Under the pieces are notes generated by a model. The model was not told the DNA's origin. It saw only the letters and a program-made list of their open reading frames with translations, and made no database searches. The translations under genes were made by a program, and so were the position numbers. 64,000 nt of DNA from an uncultured cyanobacterium. GTDB taxonomy: Bacteria > Cyanobacteriota > Cyanobacteriia > Cyanobacteriales > Cyanobacteriaceae. Each line of letters begins with the position of its first letter. Position 1 is the first letter of the stretch. Shown piece by piece: positions 1,170 through 26,135 of the stretch. Location: contig CAVVOP010000021.1 of assembly GCA_963749915.1 (NCBI GenBank), forward strand, positions 192,001 through 256,000, read 5' to 3'.

Positions 1170-2439
1170 ACCTGAGTTCGATGTAACAATAAAGCTGAAA
1201 ATAAGATATCTCAAGTATTTCGGCTTTTATGCTGATTTTGAACAACAAATGAGCATAACAAATCACAGCTAAAACAATCATTTTTAGCCTAATTTTATTT
1301 ATTTTTATCTGGATAAAAAAATTAAATTACTAATGCAGATAATGAATTTATCTCGTTTTTTTCTAATTGTAATTTTGGTTTTTTATCTTGCCATGTATAA
1401 GCTATTAATCCCGCAATTGCATTCACTAAAAAATTAATTGGGCTTCGATGACGAGAATGAACTATTTGTGATATATTTTGCAATTGGTCATTCACTGTTT
1501 CAATTAATGACCTTTTTCTTAACATTAACTTTTCCCATAATTCTAATAATTTATTATTCATCTTTTTTTTGAATGGCGTTATTAATTTAATATTTTTTAG
1601 CCATAATTGTTGAAATAAATCTTGAGAAATATACCCTTTATCCCCAAATAATCTTCCCCATAAATTTTTAGTTAAATAAGGAACTGTTTTTCGATCGTCA
1701 ACATTTCCTGCTGTTATTTTAAAAGCTAATATTTCACCTTGATCATTAATAACTAAAGGTCGTTTAAAGTCGAAATTCCAATCAATAGAGCTTTTCCCCC
1801 AATGCCCTAAATTAGCAAAAACTTTATTTCGTTTTGGTTTTGCTCTTTTATTATGGCAAACAGGGATGCCCATAGTATCAATAAATGAAATACCATTACA
1901 TTGTCCTTTACGAGTATTGAGATAAAAAATTAAAGGAATTAAAGCCGATGACATTAGTTCAACAAAACGATTATAACTGACTAAATTGGGAAAATCTGGA
2001 TAATGATACTGAAGAATAAGATCTTGATAATAATGTTTAAAATCACGATAACGAGAATGATAAAAATAAACAACAATGGTCATAATTTCACTCAAAGATA
2101 ATTGACTATTTTTGATTCTTTTTCTCTCAGAAGAATCAAGAAGTTGACTCAGAAAATGTGGCTCAAAAATCAAACAAAAATCATCAATTTCATAAAAAAG
2201 TTTATCTAATTCCATGATTTTTTTAAGTTTAGCTAAAAATAACATAATTATTATGAAATTAGAAACAGATTAAAAGAGTAATTAGAAATAAAACTTAAAT
2301 TTTCTTAACAAAAATTAACTGATTTTTGGGTCACCCACGGGGATTATGTTAAGAATTGTAAAGTGACAAAAAATAGAGAAAGGTAAAAAACCAATATCTA
2401 CTAAGGCTTTAAGGCTATTTTTTTATATCGAACTCAGGT
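1170..2439 (-). mobile_element. IS982-family insertion sequence
   Basis: Terminal inverted repeats ACCTGAGTTCGAT (1170-1182) and ATCGAACTCAGGT (2427-2439) enclose the transposase; no target-site duplication seen. Confidence 0.9.
1322..2245 (-). CDS. IS982-family DDE transposase (possibly degenerate)
   Basis: SLSEIMTI, FPNLVSYNRFVEL, GDKGYIS and RSLIETVNDQL motifs. Confidence 0.85.
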   Translation of the reverse strand: MLFLAKLKKIMELDKLFYEIDDFCLIFEPHFLSQLLDSSERKRIKNSQLSLSEIMTIVVYFYHSRYRDFKHYYQDLILQYHYPDFPNLVSYNRFVELMSSALIPLIFYLNTRKGQCNGISFIDTMGIPVCHNKRAKPKRNKVFANLGHWGKSSIDWNFDFKRPLVINDQGEILAFKITAGNVDDRKTVPYLTKNLWGRLFGDKGYISQDLFQQLWLKNIKLITPFKKKMNNKLLELWEKLMLRKRSLIETVNDQLQNISQIVHSRHRSPINFLVNAIAGLIAYTWQDKKPKLQLEKNEINSLSALVI

Positions 2440-2929: not shown

Positions 2930-3015
2930 GCCTAACACTGCGTTGGAGCCGACTTTTTAGAAGTGACCTGTAAAAGTTAAAGATTGACTGAGGCGGCTCA
3001 ACTAGACCGTTGAGT
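2930..3015 (+). other. Integron attC recombination site
   Basis: R'' GCCTAAC (2930-2936), 5-nt spacer, L'' GTTG(G)AGCCG pairing with L' CGGCTCAAC with one extra base, 6-nt spacer, R' GTTGAGT (3009-3015). Confidence 0.85.
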
Positions 3016-10631: not shown

Positions 10632-13600
10632 TTAAGCAAAGACAAAATTAGCGTCAGTAATTGTAGTATTTAATAACTGAGCGATTTCTTGTCCATCAAC
10701 GGAGATAATCACGTTACTTCCTTGTTTTTGGTAATTCCAATCACTACCTTTATTGCCTAAATTTAAGTCGGTATTAGCAAAACCAATCACATCCCCCTGA
10801 CTAGCGTTGAAGTCACTGATTTGGTTAGCATTTTCAGGAATTGCGAGATCATCAGTAATTAACCAGAATTGATCAGCACCTGCACCACCAGTAATATTAT
10901 TACCGCCTTCACCTGAACCTGCAAAGATAATATCATCACCAGATCCTAAAATTACACGGTTGTTAGTACCAACAAAAACGATGTCATCACCGCTAGCAGT
11001 ATCGATGCGATTGCCTTCACCCATAACGGAAACGTCAACATAATCGTCACCGCTACCAGTAGAAAGGATTTGGTTGTCACCTACAAACATTTTATCGTCA
11101 GGGAAAGCACTGTCAAATTCATCTGCATCAGGAGTTCCACTGACGAATTTAGGTACATCAATTTCAGGTTCTTCATCAAGCTGGATGTTGAACTGGAAAA
11201 TCTGACCACCCTGATCTGCTTTACGCTCTGCAATGATTCCACCCGATTCACCACGATGCTGTACTACCCCGACAAAGGTTTGTTCCGCTAGAGGTAAACT
11301 GCCGATGATTTCTTGTGCGCCAGTTCCAGCGATCTCTTCTTGGGTATAGAAGCTGCCATCTTCCTTCTTTGCCACGAGATGAGTTACGTTCCAACTACCT
11401 GAAAATTCTGAACTGGTTGCTGATGAGAAAGTATCAGGAATTGCCGAAACTTGAGCCGTTGCACGAGGGTTGAGAGAACCACCTGCTGATGCTAAGAAAT
11501 AGCCCTTGCCTTCCTCTTCCAGTTGTAGGGTTTCTGGATCGACAGGCAGAACGTACTTCCGCTCGCCGTATGGGTTGCCCGAATCCTCGTCCACGATTAG
11601 GTAATCACCATCAGATGCCTTGACCCACTGTAAACCATCGTTTTGATTCATCCGAGCCTCATTTATTGCTAGATGGGTCGCGTGGGTCAACGTACCATCG
11701 GGGTTATTCGGACCAATATGACCAGCACCCTTACCACCAGTCTCAAGAGTCAAAGCACCGTCCACACCCGCGACAATTCGGGTTACATCTGCTGACAGAT
11801 AATCTGGCAGACCATTGCCATCCTCGTCGTTGTTAAGTAGCTCATCAACAATGTTGGTGAACTCAATACCCAACTGGGCACTCGGCACAGTTAGATTTTG
11901 CACATAGCGATGCTTGGTAGCATCTGGATCGACTGCTGGGTGTTCGGTTTTACTGTCACCGTTGAAATAGGTATAGCCATCGGGCTGCTCATTCGCCTCG
12001 TCTTCGTCCCCATCTTGCTCCCACAAGAACACTTCTGTCTCGTCAGCATTCACAGGATTATCAAAACCATCCCACTGATAGCTAGTAGGATAGTAGCGGG
12101 CGTTAAAGGTATCGGGAGCATCGGCATCCTTAACGTAGTTATCCATCATGAAGGTATCAGCATCCACTGTCTCGATGCCCAAATCGGTGTAGGTCTCTCC
12201 ATCAAGTGCCATCCCGTACAACTGACCGTACAGTAAACCATTACGACCTAAGAATGAATCCCGTTCACTTGCATCCTCAGTAAGGGCATTACCGTTTTCA
12301 TCCACACCTTTCTTCCCGATGTAGATCATCAAAGGTGCTGGCTCCACTTCAAGGTTGTAGCCTGACGTTACGAGAACAACGTAATCTTCGTGACCTGAAT
12401 TAATGGGCAGGATTTTCTCATAACCAGATTGACCTAGTGCTGGAGCGGTGTAAGCGGTCTCGTTAGCAATATCTACCACAATTGATGCTAGACCCATAGT
12501 AGTGGTGAAGAAATCCTCTCCAGCACTGATACGAGCGTCCTCTTCAGTGAAACCAGCGGCAGCGGCAGCTTCATCATACAGTTCGCCAATGTTCCACTCT
12601 TCAGCCATTAGCCATACGTCATCTTCAAAGCCGATGCCATCGCCGTACTTGTTGGCTTGTTCGTAGTAAGCTCCGCAGAAAGAGTGGAAGAAGAAATCGC
12701 CCTCAGTGAGTAGCTGATCAGAATCAAACTCAAGTAGAGTAACATTTCCGTTCTCGTCCACTTGGGCTTGGTTGCCCCAGATGCCACCCTGATCCTTAGG
12801 AAGTACCTCGTCACCAAACACGTTGTAAACTGTGCTAAACAGATGCCCTGCACCTTCAAACATCTCGCTGGCGGCACTGTCGTTATTGAGGAAGTTTGCA
12901 AATGCTTCGCGATTATAGTCGATAGTGTGTACATGAGAGCCAGTGAAGGCTACGCCACTATCCATCACCCAACCATAGGTTTCTCCTTTAGAGTCAGATA
13001 AGGTTGCGTAGGACTCAGACTGATACACCACACGCACAGTATCTTCATCTAGTAACCAAGCGGCTTGACCATCGGGATAGCCAGTTAACACGTGACCATT
13101 TTCTGGATCAATCTCGCCCACAGTAGCGAGTGGTTTGAAATTTCCGAAAGGGAATTCAGTATCGCCGCTATCTCCGTCCCGTAGATGTTCGGGTTTAGTG
13201 GAACTACCCGCCTGAGGAATCAGGGCTGTTGTTTCTCCAATATTTGCCATTTCGAAAGGATCGAGTTCGCTCTTCAGGTGGAGAATTTGTCCGCCTTCTA
13301 CCAAATTGAGATCTGAGATGATTCCATCTCGAAAACCGTGAGCTTGAACGGTGAGGTAGAAATCAGTACCTGCAGGGTTGCCATAGTACTCAGAAACATC
13401 AATAATGCCCGAAGTTTCCGACGCCCCGAAGGTTTCAGCTTTGGAATCCGTAGTGCCTTCAGGTAATACTACGTCACGGTCAATTACTGCTATACGAGTA
13501 GCTTTGCCGTCGGGAGCAACACGCCAGATAGAGGCTTCTTCTAATCCTTCCGCATCTTCAGGGGCGAAATCATAAGCGAAGTCTTCCTGTACATAGATAT

Positions 13601-16600
13601 ATCCATCAGCGGACCAAGCTAGGTTGTCTGGGTTGCGAATTCCCTTGAAAGGACTATCAAGTCCGTTCAGTTCAGGAGTATCCCCATCATAGAGAATGGT
13701 CAAATCACCAGAAATAGGGTTGCCTTCGCTGTCAAAATCCACATCAAAGACGCTAACATCACCAAACAAATCAGTGGGGTTGACTTCTCCACCACCATCA
13801 CCGGTGTTATTGACGACAAATTGTGTACCATCAACAGGGTTAACATCTACGTCTTCTGGACGAGAGAAGAAGAAAGCACCAGCAGAACGAGCTTCAGCAC
13901 GGAGGGTTTCTCCTAATAAGTAACCTTCGTCATCGTAACCTGCTTGACCTGCCATAGAGGGATCTTGAACTTCAATTGGAGTCCAAGTACCACCCATTTC
14001 TGTCCCAGTACCGAACAAGTCAGCGGGAGTTTCAGAACCATCATTAGCTACCCAAGTATAGAGTTGACCGCCAACAAGACCATTACGCTCTAGGAATTCT
14101 GCTCCTGCTGAGGTATCTTTTTCTCCAATATAGAGCCAGATGGGGGCATCAGTGTAGTCGTCTCCGAGTACGAGAGCAACCATATCTTCCCGTCCAGTAT
14201 CCAATAGAGTGCCAGACTCCCAAGAACCGTAGCCTAAGTCAGGAACGGCGTAGAGGGTTTCATTGGCGATATCGAGGGCTTGGAAAGTACCATCACGCAC
14301 AGTTGGTGGGAAGTCGGGAGAGGTTTCTTCACCCAAGAGGAAGATGTTGTCTTCAAAGCCTCGTTCGTCACCAAAGGTATTAGCGTGGATGAGGTTAGCA
14401 GAACAGAAGCGATCGAACCCTGCGGTTTCAGCTATACCAGAGCTATCGGGTAGCCAGTTGATTTGCTGGGCATCGGTAACTCCAACTCCTTTGCGATCGA
14501 TAATGGTGTCATAAGCTAAACCACCGTTAATGACGGTATTGGTAGCGGTGTCAATATCCATATAATTGATCCGCGCCCCGGTTAATTCTAACCCGTTAGC
14601 TAGAGTGTAAGCATAGCCTTTGTCACGCCCCACTTCACTATTGGTGAATAGTCGTATGATACCGTCACCTAAGTCAATTACGCCTTGACCATCAGGAATA
14701 CCCACGGGGATGTAAGCATCACCGTTAGCCGCATCAGTCTCACTTTGGGTAGCCGCCTCTCCGATGGTAATCAGAGTTTGGAAGGAAACACCTTCTACGA
14801 AAGGAGTCACCATAGGAGTCGCCGTATTATCCGCAGGAGTAGTCACTGGTTCTTCATCGGGGGCATTAGCAACACCAAGACGATCGTCTAAATCGAGAGG
14901 AGTAGGTAATTTGAGTTGGATAATCTCATTATTATCAATATCGGGTCCTCGTCCGATGGAGAAGGGATAGTTATTATCATTAGCTACTAAAATAGTTTCA
15001 GCGTCAATAACTAAAACATCCTCAATGGTGACAAAAGGAAAATCAAAGACTAAACTACCATCACCGTTAAGATCGTTAGGATCAGCTATGGTTAATAAGT
15101 CCACTACTTCTATTTTTTCCACAAATCCGTTGTCATCTTTCTTGGAGATGTCAATTTTGTAGATTTTTTTGAAGTTAGCAGAATCACCTTGTCCGCCGTC
15201 ACGTTCGATGATTAAAAACTCGTTATCATTGATGGGAGTCATATCACCGATGGCATAGTTTGGTTGCTCTAGTTGATAGTAACCTGCTAAATCTTCGGCA
15301 AAAGTTTTACCAGCAACGTCAAATTCATAAATCCGTAATGCTCCTTCAGCATCGCCGAATACGGTTCCTTCTAATATGGGATATAAAGTGGCTCGATCGG
15401 GACTGTAACCCATTCCTTCAAAACCGCGAGAACTAGGTAAGTTAGCCTCAGCCTCTTCAGCTAATACTTTCGGATTCTCAGGTGAAAGAACTTCTTCTCC
15501 CGTGGCTCGTTGTACCGCTGTGCGTGCTTGATCAGGGAAATCACTGAAAAAGCCATCAGCACCTAATCGATAGAAGGCTTCGTATTCTAATTGAGGATCA
15601 CCATTATAGCTAGCAGGTAAATAATATTCATCGCTACGGAAAGTGTAAGGAGTAACAATTAATCCTGCTTCATGAGCATCTTCAATTAAAGTGGTAGGCT
15701 CACCAGCAAAGCGATCGGCATCACTGATAACACCATCACCATTAATATCATCAGGCTCACCATCATCATTATTGTCAACCGTATTTAAAGGAATGATTTG
15801 TGCCTTATAAGGACCAATTCCTTCGGCGTAAGTGGCGATTTGTGCTAAACCCTCAGGTGTAACCATATCAGCATAGGTGATATCCCCGCCAGAAGCAATT
15901 TGGTCATAAGGAGAACCACTGCTATCAAGAAGTTGAACTAAAGGAATCTCCACACCTGCATCGGGCATGATTTCATCATATAATCTTTCTAGATTACTGA
16001 TTTCAAAAGATTGAATAATTACTCGATTAGGATCGGTAAAATCCTCCTCAACTAGAGTATCAATCAAGATTTGAGAAGTATCATATCCTAAATCCTCAAA
16101 GTAAGTAGGATGCTTAGTTTCAGGATAGATGTTGATTATTTTACCCGTAGCCGCTTCTTCTGCTTTGACATATTCAATGATTTCCCCTAGGGTGGGTATT
16201 TCATAGAGATTGTCGTAGAAAGTGTTATCGGGACGAATTTCGGGAATCCGTTCTTTGGCACTTAAGAGCTTAATTTCAGCGAGGGTGAAGTCTTCAGAGA
16301 ACCAACCAGTAATTTCTTGTCCATCAACAACTTTGGTGGTCAAACGATCGCTAAAGAAAGGTAGTTCGGCTACATTGGTAGTGGCTTCCTTGAGGACATA
16401 GTTCCCACCGTCATCAATCATCGGCTTGCCGTCAGCATCAGTTTGAACGATGGCTAAAGCATTTTCGTGCCGAGCAATTAGTACTCCATCTTTGGTGGGC
16501 ACTAAATCCGGTTCAATGAAGTCAGCTCCTTGCCTTACTCCTAGGTTATAAGCAGCAGGTCCAGTTGGATTTAAAGTATGTTCAGGACGATAACCACTGG

Positions 16601-18941
16601 CACCTCGGTGAGCAATTACGAGGGGAGTTTCTCCGTTGAGGGTATTAATTTGGGCAATATTAGGGGTAACAATAGGAGCATCAATTAATTCCCCGTCTCC
16701 ATTAAAGTGGAGTAAATAAGGACCAAATTCTTCCCCAATCCAAATAGTACCGTCGTCAGCTAAGACAATAGATTCCGGATCAAAGTCAGAACCTGTTAAC
16801 AGGCGATGGGTAGTTCCTTCATTAACAATATCAAAAGGTACAAGATTATTAGGATCAGATAGTTGAATAAAACCTTCAACCTCAACGCTACCATCACCAT
16901 CTTCAATGCCGTTAAATTCAGGCTCAATTTCATAGATTCTTAAGAGGTAATCAGCACTGTTGCCCTTGCTGCCAAAACCGTTATCAGATAAGAACCAGTA
17001 GCTTTCTTTCGTGGCAAATTGCACACCGCTAAAACCTTGTACCGGTTGACTAGCAAAAGGTGTTTCACGGTTATCAGAAGTGATGTAATTACCAGAACTT
17101 GGTCCTTCAGCAAAGGTATCCGCAGGTAATTCTGCATAAGCGACTAATTCTACACCGCTAACGGCTACTTGCATAGTTTTAGCAATGTGAACTTGATCGA
17201 TCATTCCTTCCATGCCAGGTATATCATAACCGTAAGCCTCATACCCTTCCCCAGTAAAGGAGTCGAGAATAGTAGAAGCTGAACCTTGATGATACACAGG
17301 CACAGGGCGATTAGAGTGATTTGTCCAAGTATGTTTAACTTCATTATTTGCACCCCAGAAATGTCCCGCAGTGGCAGGAGTACTTGCATCATAATTTTGA
17401 GCGTCATCAGGATCATTAACTGCTAAACCATAGGTTAGAGCATTAGGTCCATAAGTCCGCAATAATTCAGGGAAATTTTCGTTTAAAGTTAAGTAGTGGT
17501 CATGATCAGCAGTGATAATCAACTCGTTTTGTTCCCAACCACCATTATTTTCAATCCAATCGATTACTAAACCAACGGTTTCATCAAAGGCTAAAGTATT
17601 ACCGATGAGGTTATCTAGGTTGTTATCATGAGCTGCCCAATCGATGTCACCGCCTTCTACTAATAACCAAAAACCATCAGGATCGTCTTGTAATACGTCT
17701 AAAGCGGCACTGGTTAACTGAGCAAGGGTAGGATTTTCGTTAACTTCTCTGGCGATAAATTGTTCGTCTGTTTCACCAGCTAATAAAGGGCGATCAGTAT
17801 CACCAACTCCAACGGGAAACTCAGGGGTATTGTAACCTAAAGTAAATTGAGCAAATCCAGTAGTACCATAATCACCGTCTGCCGATCGAGTGGGTAAATT
17901 GCCTTCCTGTCCTCTGGCACCGTAAACCCCTAATAATCTTTCTCCTGCGTTAGGATCGATACTAGAAGCGGTTTGAGCTAATACTTCTGCGGCATTTGCC
18001 CCTCTTTCTACAAAGGTATAACCGAAAATATTATCGTTAGGATTGTTGCTTAACTCGTTGTAAGTACCTTCTGATAAGTATTCAAATTCTGTAGGAGGTT
18101 CAACTTCTTCAGGTAAAGGATCGTTCACGTTAGAAAGGGGATGCCCTCCACCTAAAATAACAGTAGGCTTGAAGATAGTTAATTCTTGTTGTAAGATTGT
18201 ATCTAGTACGCCAAACTCATCAAATTTGTTGCGATCGTTGACGTTTGCCGCCGCCGCTCCCGGTGTAGCATGATCTACAGGTACAGAAGAAACTAAACCA
18301 GTGGATTTGCCAATGTGAGTTGCTCTGGTTAAAATACTTTCTACAGGTTGCTCGAAAATATCAATGCCGATCGCCCCGTTAAAAGATTTCACCCCAGTAT
18401 ATAAAGTAGTTGCCGTGTTAGCAGAATCGGGATAACTATATTTGATGTATTCCTTGTCAAAACCTGCGGATGTATTGCCTCGATCTTCATAATAAGCAGA
18501 ATCCCAAGGGGTAGAAGCACCTCTGACAGGATCGTAACCGACTAAATTCCCTACCACTCCATTTGCTACATTAGCACCACCGCTAGAGGTTGTACCCGGG
18601 TTGAAAGTGGGGTTAAATTCAAACCCTGTTCTGATTTCCCCTTCTCCTGTAACTCTTTGGCTTCTGACTCCTTGTAAAGCCGAATTACTGGTATTATAAA
18701 CACTGAGATCAGCAGGGTTACTGCTGGTTGTACCATCATCGGCGATCGTTGTGCCATAGGTAGTAACTAAACCATAACCCGTTAAGGTTTGCATATTTAG
18801 TCCTTCCCCTGTACCTTCGGTGTAAAAGTCACTTAAAGTGTTACCAGTTGCACCTGCTTGAATTTGATTGTAAATAGCAGCGGTACGAGCCATTTCCCAG
18901 CCCATGCCGTCACCAATCATGATGATTACGTTCTTAGCCAT
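10632..18941 (-). CDS. Giant secreted multi-domain alkaline phosphatase: PhoA-type AP + esterase-like phytase with inserted GDPD + two PhoX-like domains + RTX-like C-terminus
   Basis: [42 protein letters not shown] (AP); [29 protein letters not shown] (GDPD); PDGQ, RFCSA, RPED, NPDNL (PhoX-like); ATG at 18941 preferred to GTG at 18971. Confidence 0.85.
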
Positions 18942-19012
18942 CGGTTTTGTTAAATAATTATGAACTTGCACCGTATATTTAACTACGTGAAAGCTAAGAG
19001 AACTTAAAGCTT

Positions 19013-19283: not shown

Positions 19284-20105
19284 TTGAATTCGTTCGATTT
19301 TGGCGGTGATGCGAACTATGTTCAACCCCGATGGAAAGTTGACCCAACAGCGGCGTTTGCGGCTGAGGTAGATGGGCAACTAGTTGGCTCCAACATCGCT
19401 ACTTGTTGGGGTAGTGTCGGTACTTTTGGACCGCTCAGTGTTCACCCTGACTTCTGGGATCAAGGTATTGCTCAACGTTTGATGGAACCTATGATGGCTC
19501 AATTTGCTCAATGGGGGACGCGACAGGCTGGGTTGTTTACCTTTCCAAATAGTCCAAAGCATCACGCGCTTTATCAGAAGTTCGGGTTCTACCCCCGCTT
19601 TCTGACCTTCATCATGGCAAAACCCATTCAGGCAGTTCAGCAGGACTTACTCGTAACGACTTACTCGCAGCTCAATCCTCAGCAGCGATTGGATTGTCTC
19701 AAAGCGTGTTCTACCCTCACTGATACGATTTATTCAGGGCTAGATTTATCGCGTGAGATTGAAGCCGTACATACGCAAAATTTAGGGGATACGGTTTTGC
19801 TGTGGGATGAGACAAACCTAGCAGGATTTGCGATTTGTCATTATGGTGCAGGAAGCGAGGCAGGTAGTGATGTGTGCTACATCAAGTTTGGAGCAGTACG
19901 CCCAGGAATACAAGCAGGAGAACAGTTTGAACAGTTACTCGATTTGTGTGAAGTGTATGGGGCGACTCAAAAAATGTTGCGTCTCGTCGCTGGAGTAAAT
20001 ACCAGCCATGATGCAGCCTATTCCAGGATGGTTGCTCGACGTTTTCGTGCTGAAATCATCGGCATCGTCATGCATAAGCCAAATGAGCCTGGTTACAATC
20101 GCTGA
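19284..20105 (+). pseudogene. GNAT N-acetyltransferase, probably truncated at both ends
   Basis: FGPLSVHPDFWDQGIAQRLM and LYQKFGF GNAT motifs; the stop codon comes from the IS4-like end at 20102; weak TTG start. Confidence 0.7.
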
Positions 20106-20730
20106 GGGGGCGACAATGAAGCTAAACAGACGATGCTATAAGGGATTGAACATGCTAATCTGGATAAAGATGAGATATTTTCAGTTTTTATATTAATTGC
20201 CATAGAAAAAGATGTTTCAACTTCCCCAATTTTATCAGGATCATTTAAAAAAGCAGTTTAATTTACCTCAATATTTAACTCTTTGTCTTTTAGTTAACTT
20301 ACTTCAAAATCTTAAAACTGTCAGGTTAGAAGAAATGGCAAAACGTTTTCCTTATCCGATTAAATTAAGAAGTAGAATTAAAAAGTTACAACGATTTCTG
20401 AGTCTGGAAAATTGGAAAATTGAAACTATATGGTTTCCGATTTTAAAATCATCGTTTTAGGAGATAGGGAGTTTTGCTCTGTGGATTTAGCAAAGTGGTT
20501 ATCAGTAGAGAAACAGGTTTATTTATCTCTACGTTTAAAAAACAGTGAATATGTGGAGTTAGAAACTGATATATGGTTTCAATTAAGTGAATTAGGTTTA
20601 TGTCCAGGATTCTCGGTATATTATCAAGGAATAAAAGTAACAAAAACCAAGGGATTTTCAGGAATTAATTTAGCCGCAAAGTGGAAAAGAAATTATGGTC
20701 ATAAATCTAGCAAAGAACCATGGTTTAGAA
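20102..20730 (+). mobile_element. IS4-family remnant (left end and fragmented, internally deleted transposase)
   Basis: End CTGAGGGGGCGACAA; ORF pieces 20212-20460 and 20430-20792 carry KKLQRFL, VLGDREFCSV, NLAAKWKR, KEPW. Confidence 0.75.
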
Positions 20731-20949
20731 TAGTGTACCTGAGAAGTTTTTTTATAAGTAACTGTATTTCAGTATATATTAATATATATTAAGAAAAATA
20801 TCTCGGTTATGGTTTTTCAGTTATATTGAATAAAATAAATTTATAACCAATTTTTTGGTAGGTTTTGACCTAATCTGATATTCAGAATATTTCTTGATAG
20901 TATAACTATTTGGCATGTTACCCAGAAAGTTTCTTGCTATCATCAAAGA

Positions 20950-21863
20950 TTAGGCGGCGATTCTTGCCCCTTTCCTGACGCTGGCTAAATTGGCGCAATA
21001 GTCGTCAAGTAGATTTATGAGTCTGTCCATGATTGTTTTTTTACTGTTTTTTGCGGGCGTAGTTCTCTTCTTTGGCTTGCTGTTCTTTGAACTTCACAGG
21101 GTGGACAAGAGAGCGATCGCACACGGGTACGGGCTGAAGTCACAGATTGGCGGTGAGCCGTGTTCGAGTGGCCAGCTAGTTTGCGTTGCCTTCAAGGCAC
21201 CAACATTAAATAAGTCAATTTCCTTCGAATACGCGTTGCAGCTTTATACAGACGGCGTCAACGTGACCGGCACGTACAAATATCACGTTCGGAACACAAG
21301 CTATTCCGGCGAGGTGTTTCTGTCATTCAAAAAGAATCGAGTGAAAGGGCGGACCCTTATGGGTGGATTAAGAACTCTCGAAGGTGTCGTCAGCCCGAAC
21401 GGGGTGCGCCTGACCCGTGGATACCCCCCAGAGAGTTTTCTGAGCATCCTGAACGGTCCTTACGAATATAGTGTTCGGAATGGGCAGACTCAATTCGACA
21501 AAACCACACGCGCTGGAAATATCAGTGCGGAAAGCATGCTTCGCATCGAGGATAATCGCTTGTATGGTCGTGTGCTTCATGGGCCTCAGAAAACCTGGGC
21601 CATCGATGTGGATGTCACGTATCAGGGGATTAAAATTGAAGCGGTCTCTCTAGCAGTCGTTCTGGCTTGTGACAACATACTTAGCTTCCACCATTCCGAC
21701 TGATTGGTATGGAATACTGCTGGCACGTGCTGTTTGTCGCATACTTTGTCGGCTTCTTGCTTTTAATATCCGGCCCAATAATTGGGGACGTGAGTCTCAT
21801 CGTAATGCGCTGCCTAACAATTGCTTGCAGTCGGACGCGCTCCATCGCCGCTGAAGCAGGTCG
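20950..21863 (+). mobile_element. Solitary integron gene cassette (914 bp)
   Basis: Starts with TTAGGC, complementary to its own R'' GCCTAA, at a sharp rise in GC content; one ORF; ends at the G of the attC GTT. Confidence 0.75.
21017..21703 (+). CDS. Hypothetical 228-aa protein with N-terminal membrane anchor and beta-rich domain (cassette ORF)
   Basis: Intact ORF with a hydrophobic N-terminus; GC visibly higher than the host; no family recognised. Confidence 0.7.
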   Translation: MSLSMIVFLLFFAGVVLFFGLLFFELHRVDKRAIAHGYGLKSQIGGEPCSSGQLVCVAFKAPTLNKSISFEYALQLYTDGVNVTGTYKYHVRNTSYSGEVFLSFKKNRVKGRTLMGGLRTLEGVVSPNGVRLTRGYPPESFLSILNGPYEYSVRNGQTQFDKTTRAGNISAESMLRIEDNRLYGRVLHGPQKTWAIDVDVTYQGIKIEAVSLAVVLACDNILSFHHSD

Positions 21864-21869
21864 TTAGTG
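21812..21869 (+). other. Integron attC site (58 bp)
   Basis: R'' GCCTAAC, 5-nt spacer, L'' CTT(G)CAG(T)CGG pairing with L' CCGCTGAAG with two extra bases, 6-nt spacer, R' GTTAGTG. Confidence 0.85.
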
Positions 21870-22086
21870 GGAAATTGAGAGGCGACCAGGCTTTGCCTGC
21901 CGCTGCGCGATCGAAAATGATATGGGTAAAAGACAGAGACATTAAAAATTTAATTGAGAAGAACTGTTTGTCACTTGCCCCTCGTTGCAAGAACCTTCTA
22001 TTTTCGCCCAGTTACGGCAATCGCAACACGGAAGAAATTACCACGCCTACCCATGAGGAGAGAGGATGATCCTAACGTTGATCGCT

Positions 22087-22488
22087 CTACTCTCCCTCAT
22101 CTACAGTAATGGACGATAAGATAAGCATTTCCTCAACAGTTTCTACCAACTGGGAAGGATTTACTGGGGTGATGAGAAGATTGTTTCCCTTTAACCTAGA
22201 AATGAGTACAAACTCGTCGAGTTGAGAAATGTAGAACTCTAAAAAGCCACCACGACAAGTCCACAACCAGCCAAAGCCACCCCATAGACCTCCCACACCT
22301 ATCCGCACAGCCCAGCCAAACTCTTGTTGAAAAGTGTCTTTGCTGATGATGCGGATACCAGATACATCTTGCATTGGGATTGGACGTCGCCAGCCAGGGA
22401 AGACAATCTCAATATAGTTATCCGAAACAACAAAGCGAGATGGTCTACACCATAACCAGACAGATCCATAAAGAGTGATGAGTATAAG
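22087..22488 (-). pseudogene. Bacterial PH-domain-like membrane protein, 5'-truncated by an IS
   Basis: Frame is open from the IS boundary: LILITLYGSVWLWCRPSRF...PMQDVSGI...RIGVGGLWGGFGWLW...LLITPVNP. Confidence 0.6.
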
Positions 22489-23858
22489 ACTGAACAGTAC
22501 GAAGTTTTTTTCTGGAGACAGCTGGAAAGCAGAAAAAAGAACATTCCAGTGACAAACCAGCCCAGAATGTTCGAGAATAGCTGAAATAGCAAAAACAATC
22601 AGCCAAATTCATTATGCAGTTATCCGAGCGTTTAGAGCAAATTGTTACTGAGTTGCGTCCCATGTTTAGTCGCGAGGCAACATTCCAATGGTTTGTGCTC
22701 CTGTTGTGGGGACTGTTATTAAGCAGGCAAGCTCCAGCAATCACCAGTTATCTCAACGCTTTGGGAATGGGACAAGAGTACTATGGTCAAGCACTGCATT
22801 GGTTCCATTCGAGTGCATTCACTATAGACGACCTTTGCAAGGGTTGGGGCAATTGGCTCAAGAGCCATCGGAATGTACGACAATTGAAGGGACAACGGGT
22901 ATATGTCGGCGACGGTATCAAAGTGAGTAAAGAAGGGCGAAAGATGCCAGGAGTCAAACGACTCCATCAAGAGTCTGAAGATGTCAGTAAACCAGAATGG
23001 ATACGAGGACACTACTTTAGTGCATTAGGTTTGTTGTAGGGTCTCTATCTGATTACTCGAGTTAAAATTTCCACGGTTGCCCATGCTGCATTTAGTCGTC
23101 GGCCTGGCAAACATGGACCCGGACGCCACAGAAAATGGGGGAGTGAGATCAAATTACGAGAGCTGTTTGCCCCTTTTGAGCAATGTGAGCAGGCATCCGT
23201 CAGACTCTACGGACTAACCGTGAAAGTGTACTTTCAATGCTTCAACTTTTATTGGGATAGCCCTGATGAGCAAGTCCTGTTTGTCCTAACTCAGTTGCCC
23301 TCAGGCAAGCAGATTATTTTACTCTCGAGCGACCTTGAGTTAAAGGGAGAACAAGTGATAGAGGCTTATAGCTGGCGATTTAAAATTGAGGTCTGCTTCC
23401 GGACTCTGATTCAGCTACTTGGCGGCTTTTGCTATCGCTTCTGGCTAAAATCAATGCCAACGGCTCCCAAATGGCCTCAAAACTTGTCATTGACAAACTC
23501 GGAGAAAGATTTTCCCCATCAAGTGAGCCGTAAGGTTGAAGCCTTTGAACGCTTTGTTAATCTTAATGCCATTGCCTTAAGTTTACTACAAGTGCTCGCC
23601 CTAGAAATGCCCCAGCAAGTTTGGGCAGTCTTTCCACTCTGGTTTCGCACCTTGCCCAAACATGGGTTTCCCAGTGAACAAATTGTGCGCCTTTCCCTCC
23701 AACATCAACTACATCTCAATTTATCCAGAAGTATACCACGCCTACTTCTGGATAAATTACTCACCACTAAAATGGGAGCAACTGCACACTCTGATGTACC
23801 TACTTTGGCAGCCTGACTCAGAGGCTCAGATATCAACACAAACTTTTTACTGTCCAGT
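22489..23858 (+). mobile_element. DDE insertion sequence (IS4/IS701-like) with a disrupted transposase
   Basis: Inverted ends ACTGAACAGTACGAAGTTT and (reverse complement) ACTGGACAGTAAAAAGTTT; ORF pieces 22614-23039 (VGDGIKVSKEGRKMPGV) and 23220-23816 (YSWRFKIEVCFR). Confidence 0.8.
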
Positions 23859-24600: not shown

Positions 24601-26135
24601 CCCACATTCCGCACGTCACTTTGTAAGATGATAAAAGTATTAAAACCAAGCAACTTATTTTGGACAAAATATAAGTAATAATACTCAATATCTTCTTTAT
24701 TCGCGTTTTGTGCTCGCGAACTTTGCTCAAATTAAAATCTCATTGTCAATAACTTCACCTTTAATGAGAATAAATAAACAGAGCAAATCTATCAGTTTTC
24801 TATTCTTTATTTATGATATTATAATTGAGAATGTTTAGACTCTTAAATCCCATAAGTTATCCAGATAAAATATAATAATTATGACAAGAAATCGGGAAAA
24901 AACTTAAAATTAGTTTTCGTTCATTTGTTAGATTTACTATCTGTTTTATTCCTTGATTTATTACTAAATGAATCCCCTGAAAACATTGAAATATCCATCT
25001 TAACGTTGGACGTTCCGTTAGTTTTCCCAGCTGATTTTTTATCCCCGTTTTTCTCTCCTTTAATAAGCGACGCACTTCTCTTTGCCCCAAAGAATAGACT
25101 AACAGACATAACCCCAAAAACACATTGCCATTGTTTCGATTCTTTTTGGGGTTTTTAAAAACACACTATCGGCAAAAAATAATGGCTCTTTCAAAAAACT
25201 AAAACCTCTTTCTGCGGCTTGTTGCTCTTTATACTCTCTTTATACTTAATTAAAATTTCATCAGAATTAAATTTACTTTTATCCAATCTATTTGTCGCTA
25301 ACACAAATCTTCCTGCTCTTTTTTTTGATTCGTTTATTTTCGTTAAATCTGATTTCAAAATAGCCGTAACTTGATAAGTTTTTCCCGATTTTTCTTCTTT
25401 AATAAATTGTTTTAAATCTGGTCTATGGTCACGGGAATAACCTTTAATTATCTTAATTGGAATTTGATTAATTAACTCTAATTCTGCATTTTCTTTCACC
25501 AAGTTTTTGGTGATTTTTTCTTGATTATATTTCCCCTCTACTGCAAAAGAAGTTGAATCTAAATGGGAAAAATCTATATTGATATTATATTTTTTTACTG
25601 TGGCTAAAGCAATAATTAAAAATAATGAAGATAATCCTTTTTCATAAAGTTTATCCATTATTCTTCTAATTCTATCATCGTTCAAATGCTCAGGTAGTAT
25701 TCCTTTTCCGATTAAATGTTCTGTGGCTTTGTCTTTAAAAAACTGTGGAAATAGATAAAGAGGTCGAGAAATAAATCCTAATCCGTTCAGAATAATTGCT
25801 TTGACTATTTGACCTGCTGTCACGATTTCCCTCTCGTCAATACCGAGGGCATCATTAATAATTTCTTCAATGCCAATTTCATCTATAACTCCAGCAATTA
25901 ATCCTAAATGATTAATGGTTTGAACTTGTATATCTTCTGAAAACATCATTTCCAAAATTAAATTAAAAACTGAATTTAATTATCCCTTAAACGTTGCTCA
26001 TTTTTCTACTAATTTATCTGAGTTCTCTTTATAAGCTAGAGAACTAATCACCGAGTATTTCTTGTCGTAGTCAATCACTGTTCAACTTCTAACCTCGTAA
26101 TCTGAATTTATACAGTTTGACGTGCGGAATGTGGG
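24601..26135 (-). mobile_element. IS1634-family element, internally deleted and frameshifted
   Basis: Perfect 18-bp TIR CCCACATTCCGCACGTCA (24601-24618 / 26118-26135); fragments 25191-25955 (HLGLIAG, HLDSTSF, GYSRDHRPDLKQF) and 24857-25123 (RPTLRWIFQCF). Confidence 0.9.

Follow-up and report, generated by a model that had tools for sequence, protein, structure and literature searches.

A foreign integron gene cassette in a decayed integron of an uncultured cyanobacterium

A cassette lodged in the remains of a platform

The window, i.e., the whole 64,000-nucleotide stretch of DNA that was analysed, contains a real integron gene cassette that is foreign to its host and was mobilised by the integron integrase, IntI. 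In the reading that we favour, with a probability of about 0.68, this cassette is lodged in a decayed platform that has lost nearly all of intI and the core of attI, and it was most likely joined there by IntI, likely from elsewhere, at a hidden site that starts the third attI repeat. Neither the intact intI nor the intact attI core of a complete integron was found in the window; the locus is a decayed integron (a pseudo-integron of the CALIN type), of which this genome has several, and taken by itself it is an ordinary final stage of such decay. The features on which the argument rests are listed below; C, G and L labels denote contigs, related genomes and fetched loci, respectively.

20102-20727, plus strand: insertion-sequence (IS) copy, truncated and internally deleted, with pieces of a DDE transposase; the left boundary and context outside the integron (97-99% matches at six further genomic positions; this copy is short of about 210 bp)
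20760-20847, no strand assigned: AT-rich repeat found in plasmid-like regions and joined here to the intI stump (93% to the C8, C13 and C23 copies)
20848-20871, minus strand: intI stump, codons 1-8, start codon lost (alignment to the C22 remnant and to the intact integron of G466)
20872-20949, plus strand: left part of attI, holding the first two of its five repeat units, at 20878 and 20918 (nhmmer profile and G466 alignment)
20950-21863, plus strand: gene cassette, 914 bp (from the crossover TT to the G of the attC R' box)
21017-21703, plus strand: cargo ORF, 228 amino acids, with a predicted N-terminal membrane helix, 12-stranded beta-barrel and C-terminal hydrophobic helix
21812-21869, plus strand: attC, 58 bp (R'' 21812-21818, R' 21863-21869)
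21864-22008, plus strand: shared 3' segment, also present in the C8 and C23 arrays, after the final attC of each (blastn)

The cassette and its ends

An initial annotation, made from the letters of the window, had described a 58-bp attC following an intact ORF of 228 amino acids, a TTAGGC motif 67 bp before the ATG, and a GC-rich, foreign cassette bounded by these signals, and each of these elements was indeed present. When the bottom strand of attC was folded, the R and L boxes were paired and extrahelical bases were seen, at an energy of -12 kcal/mol that by itself has no significance (z -1.9, with 12 of 200 shuffles equally good). The site was also matched by a covariance model at 40.3 bits (E 1.5e-7 in the window, 1.1e-5 genome-wide). 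This model was built from 12 attC-like sites, all from other genomes, and it replaced two home-made attC scans that had recovered the window site, missed known sites and returned many false matches; none of five congeners gave any match with it. The TTAGGC at 20950 is complementary to R'' (GCCTAAC) and, taken by itself, is weak evidence, as it would occur by chance within 150 bp in about 2% of cases. The GC content of the cassette is 50%, compared with 24.7% in the left flank and 37.5% in the genome, and its GC3 is 56%, compared with 28-35% in four host genes. A scan for Pc promoters gave three consensus sites against 3.1 expected, i.e., the level of chance.

The strongest proof of the cassette as a unit is a single contig from run X7, one of four runs and derived from a stromatolite metagenome. 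Its alignment to the window extends exactly from 20950 to 21867, at 96% with 39 other letters and 2 gaps. Upstream, 30 bases of the contig are visible, which look like the right arm of a modelled attC site and have G as their last base, while downstream of the cassette the DNA differs from that of the window. Since the same ends are thus seen with different neighbours, the cassette moves as a unit with precisely the ends that had been proposed. The joint of the circular form (21863 to 20950) was not found among the contigs of the four metagenome runs, which are of a kind unable to show its absence.

The cargo protein

The ORF was modelled by AlphaFold with good confidence (pLDDT 88.6 for the whole chain and 94.5 for the domain) as a hydrophobic helix at residues 3-35, 12 strands and a C-terminal helix. 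By sequence, 18 homologous proteins were found within 48-100%, and 32 cluster representatives were added by profile search; Pfam assigned no family to the cargo protein, nor consistently to the 36 aligned members, and no solved structure related by sequence was found. With this query, the ORF was not found in any of 400 other genomes of the phylum. Metagenome and genome scans returned no close homologue together with its context, and for the 73-90% homologues the setting was seen in X7 only. When the more distant homologues (51-60%) were viewed in MAGs titled Pseudomonadota, Pseudomonadales, Caulobacterales and Maritimibacter, none of the seven loci had an attC, which suggests that the family includes ordinary genes and that the version in the window was captured into a cassette. 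This outcome speaks in part against the initial annotation, which had named homologues that are ordinary genes without attC among its refuting conditions: the close version, in the window and in X7, is the only one demonstrated as a cassette.

A structural search of the ORF had also been suggested. The 12-stranded barrel was predicted confidently; the Foldseek matches were weak, with TM-scores of 0.42 or less, and in the Atlas, unnamed clusters were matched at 0.77, with no named match. The best structural matches listed were 12-stranded barrels. The KdgM porin (4pr7) resembles the cargo in having a 12-strand meander (Z 11.2, rmsd 3.5, 142 aligned residues), and this barrel and the 12-stranded autotransporter translocator 1uyo are 5-8% identical to it. 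Several features of the cargo argue against an outer-membrane pore: its strands are short, and one of their faces is polar and charged; a membrane helix lies at the N-terminus; and the C-terminal helix is hydrophobic. The fold shared by the Tubby C-terminal domain, LURP-one and scramblases is a 12-stranded barrel around a C-terminal helix. The cargo model has 12 strands and a C-terminal helix, and no Tubby or LURP entry was among the matches listed in any of the fold searches. Considering that the strands are short with one polar face, the cargo might tentatively be viewed as a soluble-type, membrane-anchored barrel that holds a hydrophobic ligand, our best guess, although one that is rather more likely to be wrong than right.

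Both flanks belong to integrons

To identify the DNA on the left of the cassette, the relevant reference is the relative G466, which contains an intact integron: the attI motif lies about 190 bp from a divergent 321-aa intI without stops, and attC sites follow downstream. By virtue of its position beside this intact intI, the core motif is recognised as attI, the units of which are spaced 40, 32, 40 and 40 bp apart in G466. The left flank of the window aligned with the G466 platform over 102 nt at 75% identity, with a score of 94 compared with a maximum of 31 in 500 shuffles, and a profile built from the platforms of six relatives only matched 20847-20956 in nhmmer (E 1.2e-18). The intI stump reads RSKPTKKL, compared with MEKPPKKL in the remnant on C22. 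The remnants of intI and attI precede the cassette in the right order and orientation, and as judged by these comparisons the left flank is a decayed integron platform. Missing from it are attI units 3-5 and the core, amounting to 110 bp as counted in the C22 copy.

Within its own genome, 20760-20949 matched C8, C13, C22, C23 and three places in C21 by blastn. Homology to the other integron platforms starts at 20760 or at 20848, extends up to 20949, and resumes from 21864 to 22008. The possibility that 20760-20847 is decayed intI was rejected, as this AT-rich repeat also occurs without an integron (C13:16077-16202 and C8:374494); it is found on plasmid NZ_AP014828.1 as well. Further to the left, the IS copy at 20102-20727 gave a weak DDE_Tnp_1 match (E 0.026), and its other copies continue differently after 20727.

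On the right, 21864-22008 is 100% identical over 145 bp to C8:875695-875839 and, in part, 88% identical to C23 over 112 columns. The same segment was matched in 28 of 301 genomes, own included, nearly always at 21975-22008. The latter is a 34-bp repeat that is present in many related genomes, in inverted pairs and, in this genome, often beside tyrosine-recombinase genes; it possibly marks the terminus of a mobile element that has no name as yet. Beyond it, on the minus strand, lies a bacterial PH-domain gene (22087-22489), 94% identical to a gene in G029, interrupted by an internally deleted IS from 22489 on, and without an attC match by the covariance model; further broken transposases are found at 24857-25955.

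These findings do not agree with the view that the cassette is solitary, with no integrase or array nearby. The 100 bp on its left consist of the remnant of intI and attI, the 145 bp on its right also end two other arrays, and the window contains a second attC at 2930-3015 (plus strand, 52.1 bits, R' box GTTGAGT), 18 kb away. It belongs to another cassette remnant, in which the ORF before attC is truncated at its 5' end, where a DDE transposase element (1325-2245, minus strand) has cut it. Between the two, an ORF of 2779 amino acids (10632-18971, minus strand) reads like fused alkaline-phosphatase and phosphodiesterase domains; it gave no DNA match at E 1e-20 in five congeners. The region as a whole is not syntenic in these five, where the matches consisted of IS pieces and an amidase gene only, and no empty site was found among them.

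Platforms, attC sites and integrase in the same genome

Seven copies of the platform, that of the window included, were detected by nhmmer. The core motif, GAAAGTTTC-N4-TAATAMATAG|TTR, is absent from the window and present at four other places in the genome, where an intact core is followed by cassette-like genes. At least 10 attC sites were recorded by the covariance model (150 of 658 candidates scored). A genome-wide search for intI, as the initial annotation had advised, returned nothing over the TIGR02249 cut-off in the assembly, with 29 of 29 candidates scored; as the assembly consists of 34 contigs, an intI may lie on unassembled DNA. The intI on C22 is internally deleted, with codons 1-46, 200-241 and 302-320 kept, and a 30-codon piece of intI is located at C21:501072-501161. 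As the gutted C22 gene is still 86-89% identical to the IntI of G466, a functional enzyme of this family was probably present not long ago. The C8 and C23 copies adjoin parA-like and tyrosine-recombinase-like ORFs (names partly read off the sequences). These two platforms have also lost their cores, by irregular deletions at positions without a demonstrated IntI role, from which it follows that plain decay occurs in this genome.

Several of the individual loci deserve mention. The region C22:154800-157250 combines the deleted intI, an intact five-repeat attI and a frameshifted gene pair that reads like McrB/McrC restriction genes, with no attC match. At C21:498300-502700, two attI platforms lie 3 kb apart and each leads into cassettes; the attC sites of this region are located at 499716 and 502110, and a third one, in decay, near 499240. 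The cassette of the sister copy on C8 (876067-876747; L042:701-1378, minus strand) encodes a protein with a weak, below-cut-off match to the gasdermin family of Pfam (E 0.003), and its product is possibly an anti-phage protein. A lone cassette at C22:232747-234900, with a large gene reading like a DUF262-type nuclease and a 72-bp attC (44 bits), starts at a stretch that resembles an attI simple site only; this locus and C21:611343 are better candidates for a true solitary cassette. Lastly, a gene resembling a membrane transporter directly follows a truncated platform at C21:101716-101860; no attC match was obtained there, and this host gene possibly reuses a platform promoter.

The A|TT junction

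The position of the left breakpoint was revealed by a contig of X1 that matches 20809-20949 with a single difference in 141 bases, and then continues with ATATACAG (ATATAC). The breakpoint is therefore the start of attI repeat 3, 16 bp past the box of repeat 2. The right breakpoint is the exact IntI crossover, where X7 has the G, and no bases are shared at the joint between the two. The relative G495 has a methyltransferase cassette at the same 16-bp register inside attI: its left junction is G|TTAGCT, on its right the attC of the cassette (65.8 bits) is joined to G|ATATAC, and the true core with another cassette follows 190 bp further. G495 is thus one natural case of IntI-type insertion inside attI, and the only other one seen at this register. 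A search of 301 genomes for the junction pattern at this register returned none, but the pattern missed the window's own site and the result is thus uninformative; a looser register scan of the fetched loci added one doubtful match (L056). A more general notion, that orphan platforms start at G|WT sites, was not borne out, since among 33 platforms the breakpoints proved too blurred.

Immediately before the junction, the window has A, as have X1, C8, C22 and G466 at this position; in G495 the base is G. For IntI1, a mismatch at the first base was reported to lower recombination by 10^3- to 10^4-fold (PMC2811028), so that an IntI event at A|TT would have been rare. Nonetheless, the A|TT junction was quite probably made by IntI. 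Excisions by IntI at nearby non-att sites have been described to delete DNA (Loot et al., bioRxiv 2022.09.11.507474), and off-target activity of the enzyme was also described in PMC10127599.

The sequence of events would be as follows. A plasmid-like mobile unit may have carried the platform into this IS-rich island, as is suggested by the parA-like and tyrosine-recombinase genes next to the C8 and C23 copies. IntI would have joined a G|TT site to the cryptic site that lies 16 bp beyond repeat 2, by either of two routes: the circle may have been inserted at the cryptic site, with the remaining attI then removed by attC x attI recombination, or a deletion may have extended from the cryptic site to the true crossover. 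The enzyme would have acted in trans, after the truncation of intI, because the window and C8 copies, although alike in this truncation and in the 3' segment, contain different cassettes, the right junctions of which are precise at G|TT. The suggestion of an integrase acting in trans, already made in the initial annotation, is accordingly a plausible one. With the loss of the 110 bp that include the true core, the cassette was likely fixed; having A on the left and G on the right, it is predicted by the first-base rule to excise very poorly now. That the junction is non-canonical and may have fixed the cassette had been proposed from the outset, and is supported as likely.

The most serious alternative is that the cassette entered at the true attI core and that a later, IntI-independent deletion of 110 bp ended at the crossover by chance, which we regard as a distinctly minor but appreciable likelihood. 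It would spare IntI a violation of the first-base rule, and it is in keeping with the irregular deletions through attI in the C8 and C23 copies and with the abundant IS debris in the region. However, it leaves to coincidence that both breakpoints fall at meaningful positions, namely, the IntI crossover and the start of a repeat, with no shared bases at the joint, and that junctions of the IntI type occur at the same register in G495.

The explanation offered first, in which IntI in trans placed the cassette into an ordinary chromosomal GWT (attG) site and thus created a true SALIN, is largely refuted and retains very little probability. It agreed with the assembly being without an intact intI, with the single cassette of foreign GC and GC3, and with the fact that SALINs and attG insertion are documented. 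Against it, both flanks are parts of integrons, the junction is not G|WT, and the proposed comparison with relatives revealed no empty allele joining the two flanks; instead, in X1 the left flank runs into the rest of attI. What survives of that proposal is the secondary nature of the site, which is best placed inside attI; the target was not an anonymous chromosomal one. It is just as improbable that entry occurred by normal chemistry at a cryptic G|AT site, the G of which later mutated to A: G495 does have G at this position, in agreement with the GWT rule, but A is found there in four undeleted platforms, one of which differs from that of the window by 1 base in 141.

Relation to known systems

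An automatic screen would likely call the locus a SALIN; it shares with SALINs and attG-inserted cassettes (Loot et al., bioRxiv 10.1101/2022.09.11.507474) one attC, one ORF and the lack of an intact intI nearby. It is unlike them in that the cassette abuts an attI remnant and an intI stump, and in that the junction is A|TT rather than G|WT; SALINs, as defined in the same source, are without other att sites nearby. It is like the CALINs and pseudo-integrons (PMC4889954, PMC2426708), which are cassettes left after the loss of intI, frequently accompanied by IS elements. Cury et al. (PMC4889954), who count cyanobacteria among the hosts of integrons, were unable to look for attI in most integrons and recorded intI pseudogenes near only 15 of 279 CALINs; Nemergut et al. 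(PMC2426708) reported that about a third of intI genes are pseudogenes. Unlike the CALINs as treated in PMC4889954, the present locus retains an 8-codon stump and a family of attI that such profiles would miss, both of which are recognisable by DNA comparison. The truncated (delta) attI sites in integrons of classes 1 and 2 (PMC12901181) are similar as partial attI sites embedded in arrays; however, they are described as keeping the core next to the crossover and as recombining, whereas at the present locus it is the distal repeats that are retained and the core that is missing.

As this locus shows, an attI remnant can go unrecognised around a cassette that is scored as solitary, a point of relevance to the question of whether attG insertion or integron decay gives rise to SALINs and small CALINs. 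The attI motif defined here makes this question testable across cyanobacteria. In addition, natural junctions seen twice at a single register suggest that attI contains a cryptic site for IntI, by which cassettes could become fixed.

The attI family in related genomes

Allowing one mismatch, the attI core motif was found in 58 of 301 genomes of the order, own included, and its reversed control in none; at least two copies are present in 22 of the 58. In 25 of the 301, an intI over the cut-off was detected, and others may have been missed, given the ceiling of seven scored candidates per genome and the fragmented state of many assemblies. Five of these 25 are among the 58, and as the other 20 are without this motif, other types of attI exist. 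Thirty motif loci were fetched, several of which end at contig ends: within 1.5 kb, intI was matched over its full length in two, in part in 10 and not at all in 18, and an attC match was obtained in 16, one of which is a training site. Since kin are not independent, the counts of genomes and loci are descriptions and not tests. A full-text literature search, the coverage of which left out most subscription journals and all supplements, found no description of this attI family.

A broader scenario, which we put forward as speculative, is that cyanobacteria carry widespread, integrase-less and multi-copy attI docks, made of five repeats of about 40 bp, which would travel on mobile DNA and receive their cassettes from passing integrases that act in trans. 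Cryptic sites in the repeats would allow IntI to place cassettes upstream of the core, to remove the core and hold a gene in place, or to excise a partial attI that could seed new docks. If this were true, many of the 'solitary' cassettes of cyanobacteria would be products of a non-autonomous dock system and not of random attG insertion. Tandem arrangements were observed in two of the fetched loci: L118 (G552:C118) contains three units of stump intI, attI and cassette at 3-kb spacing, and L117 (G488:C1) contains two such units at 0.9 kb.
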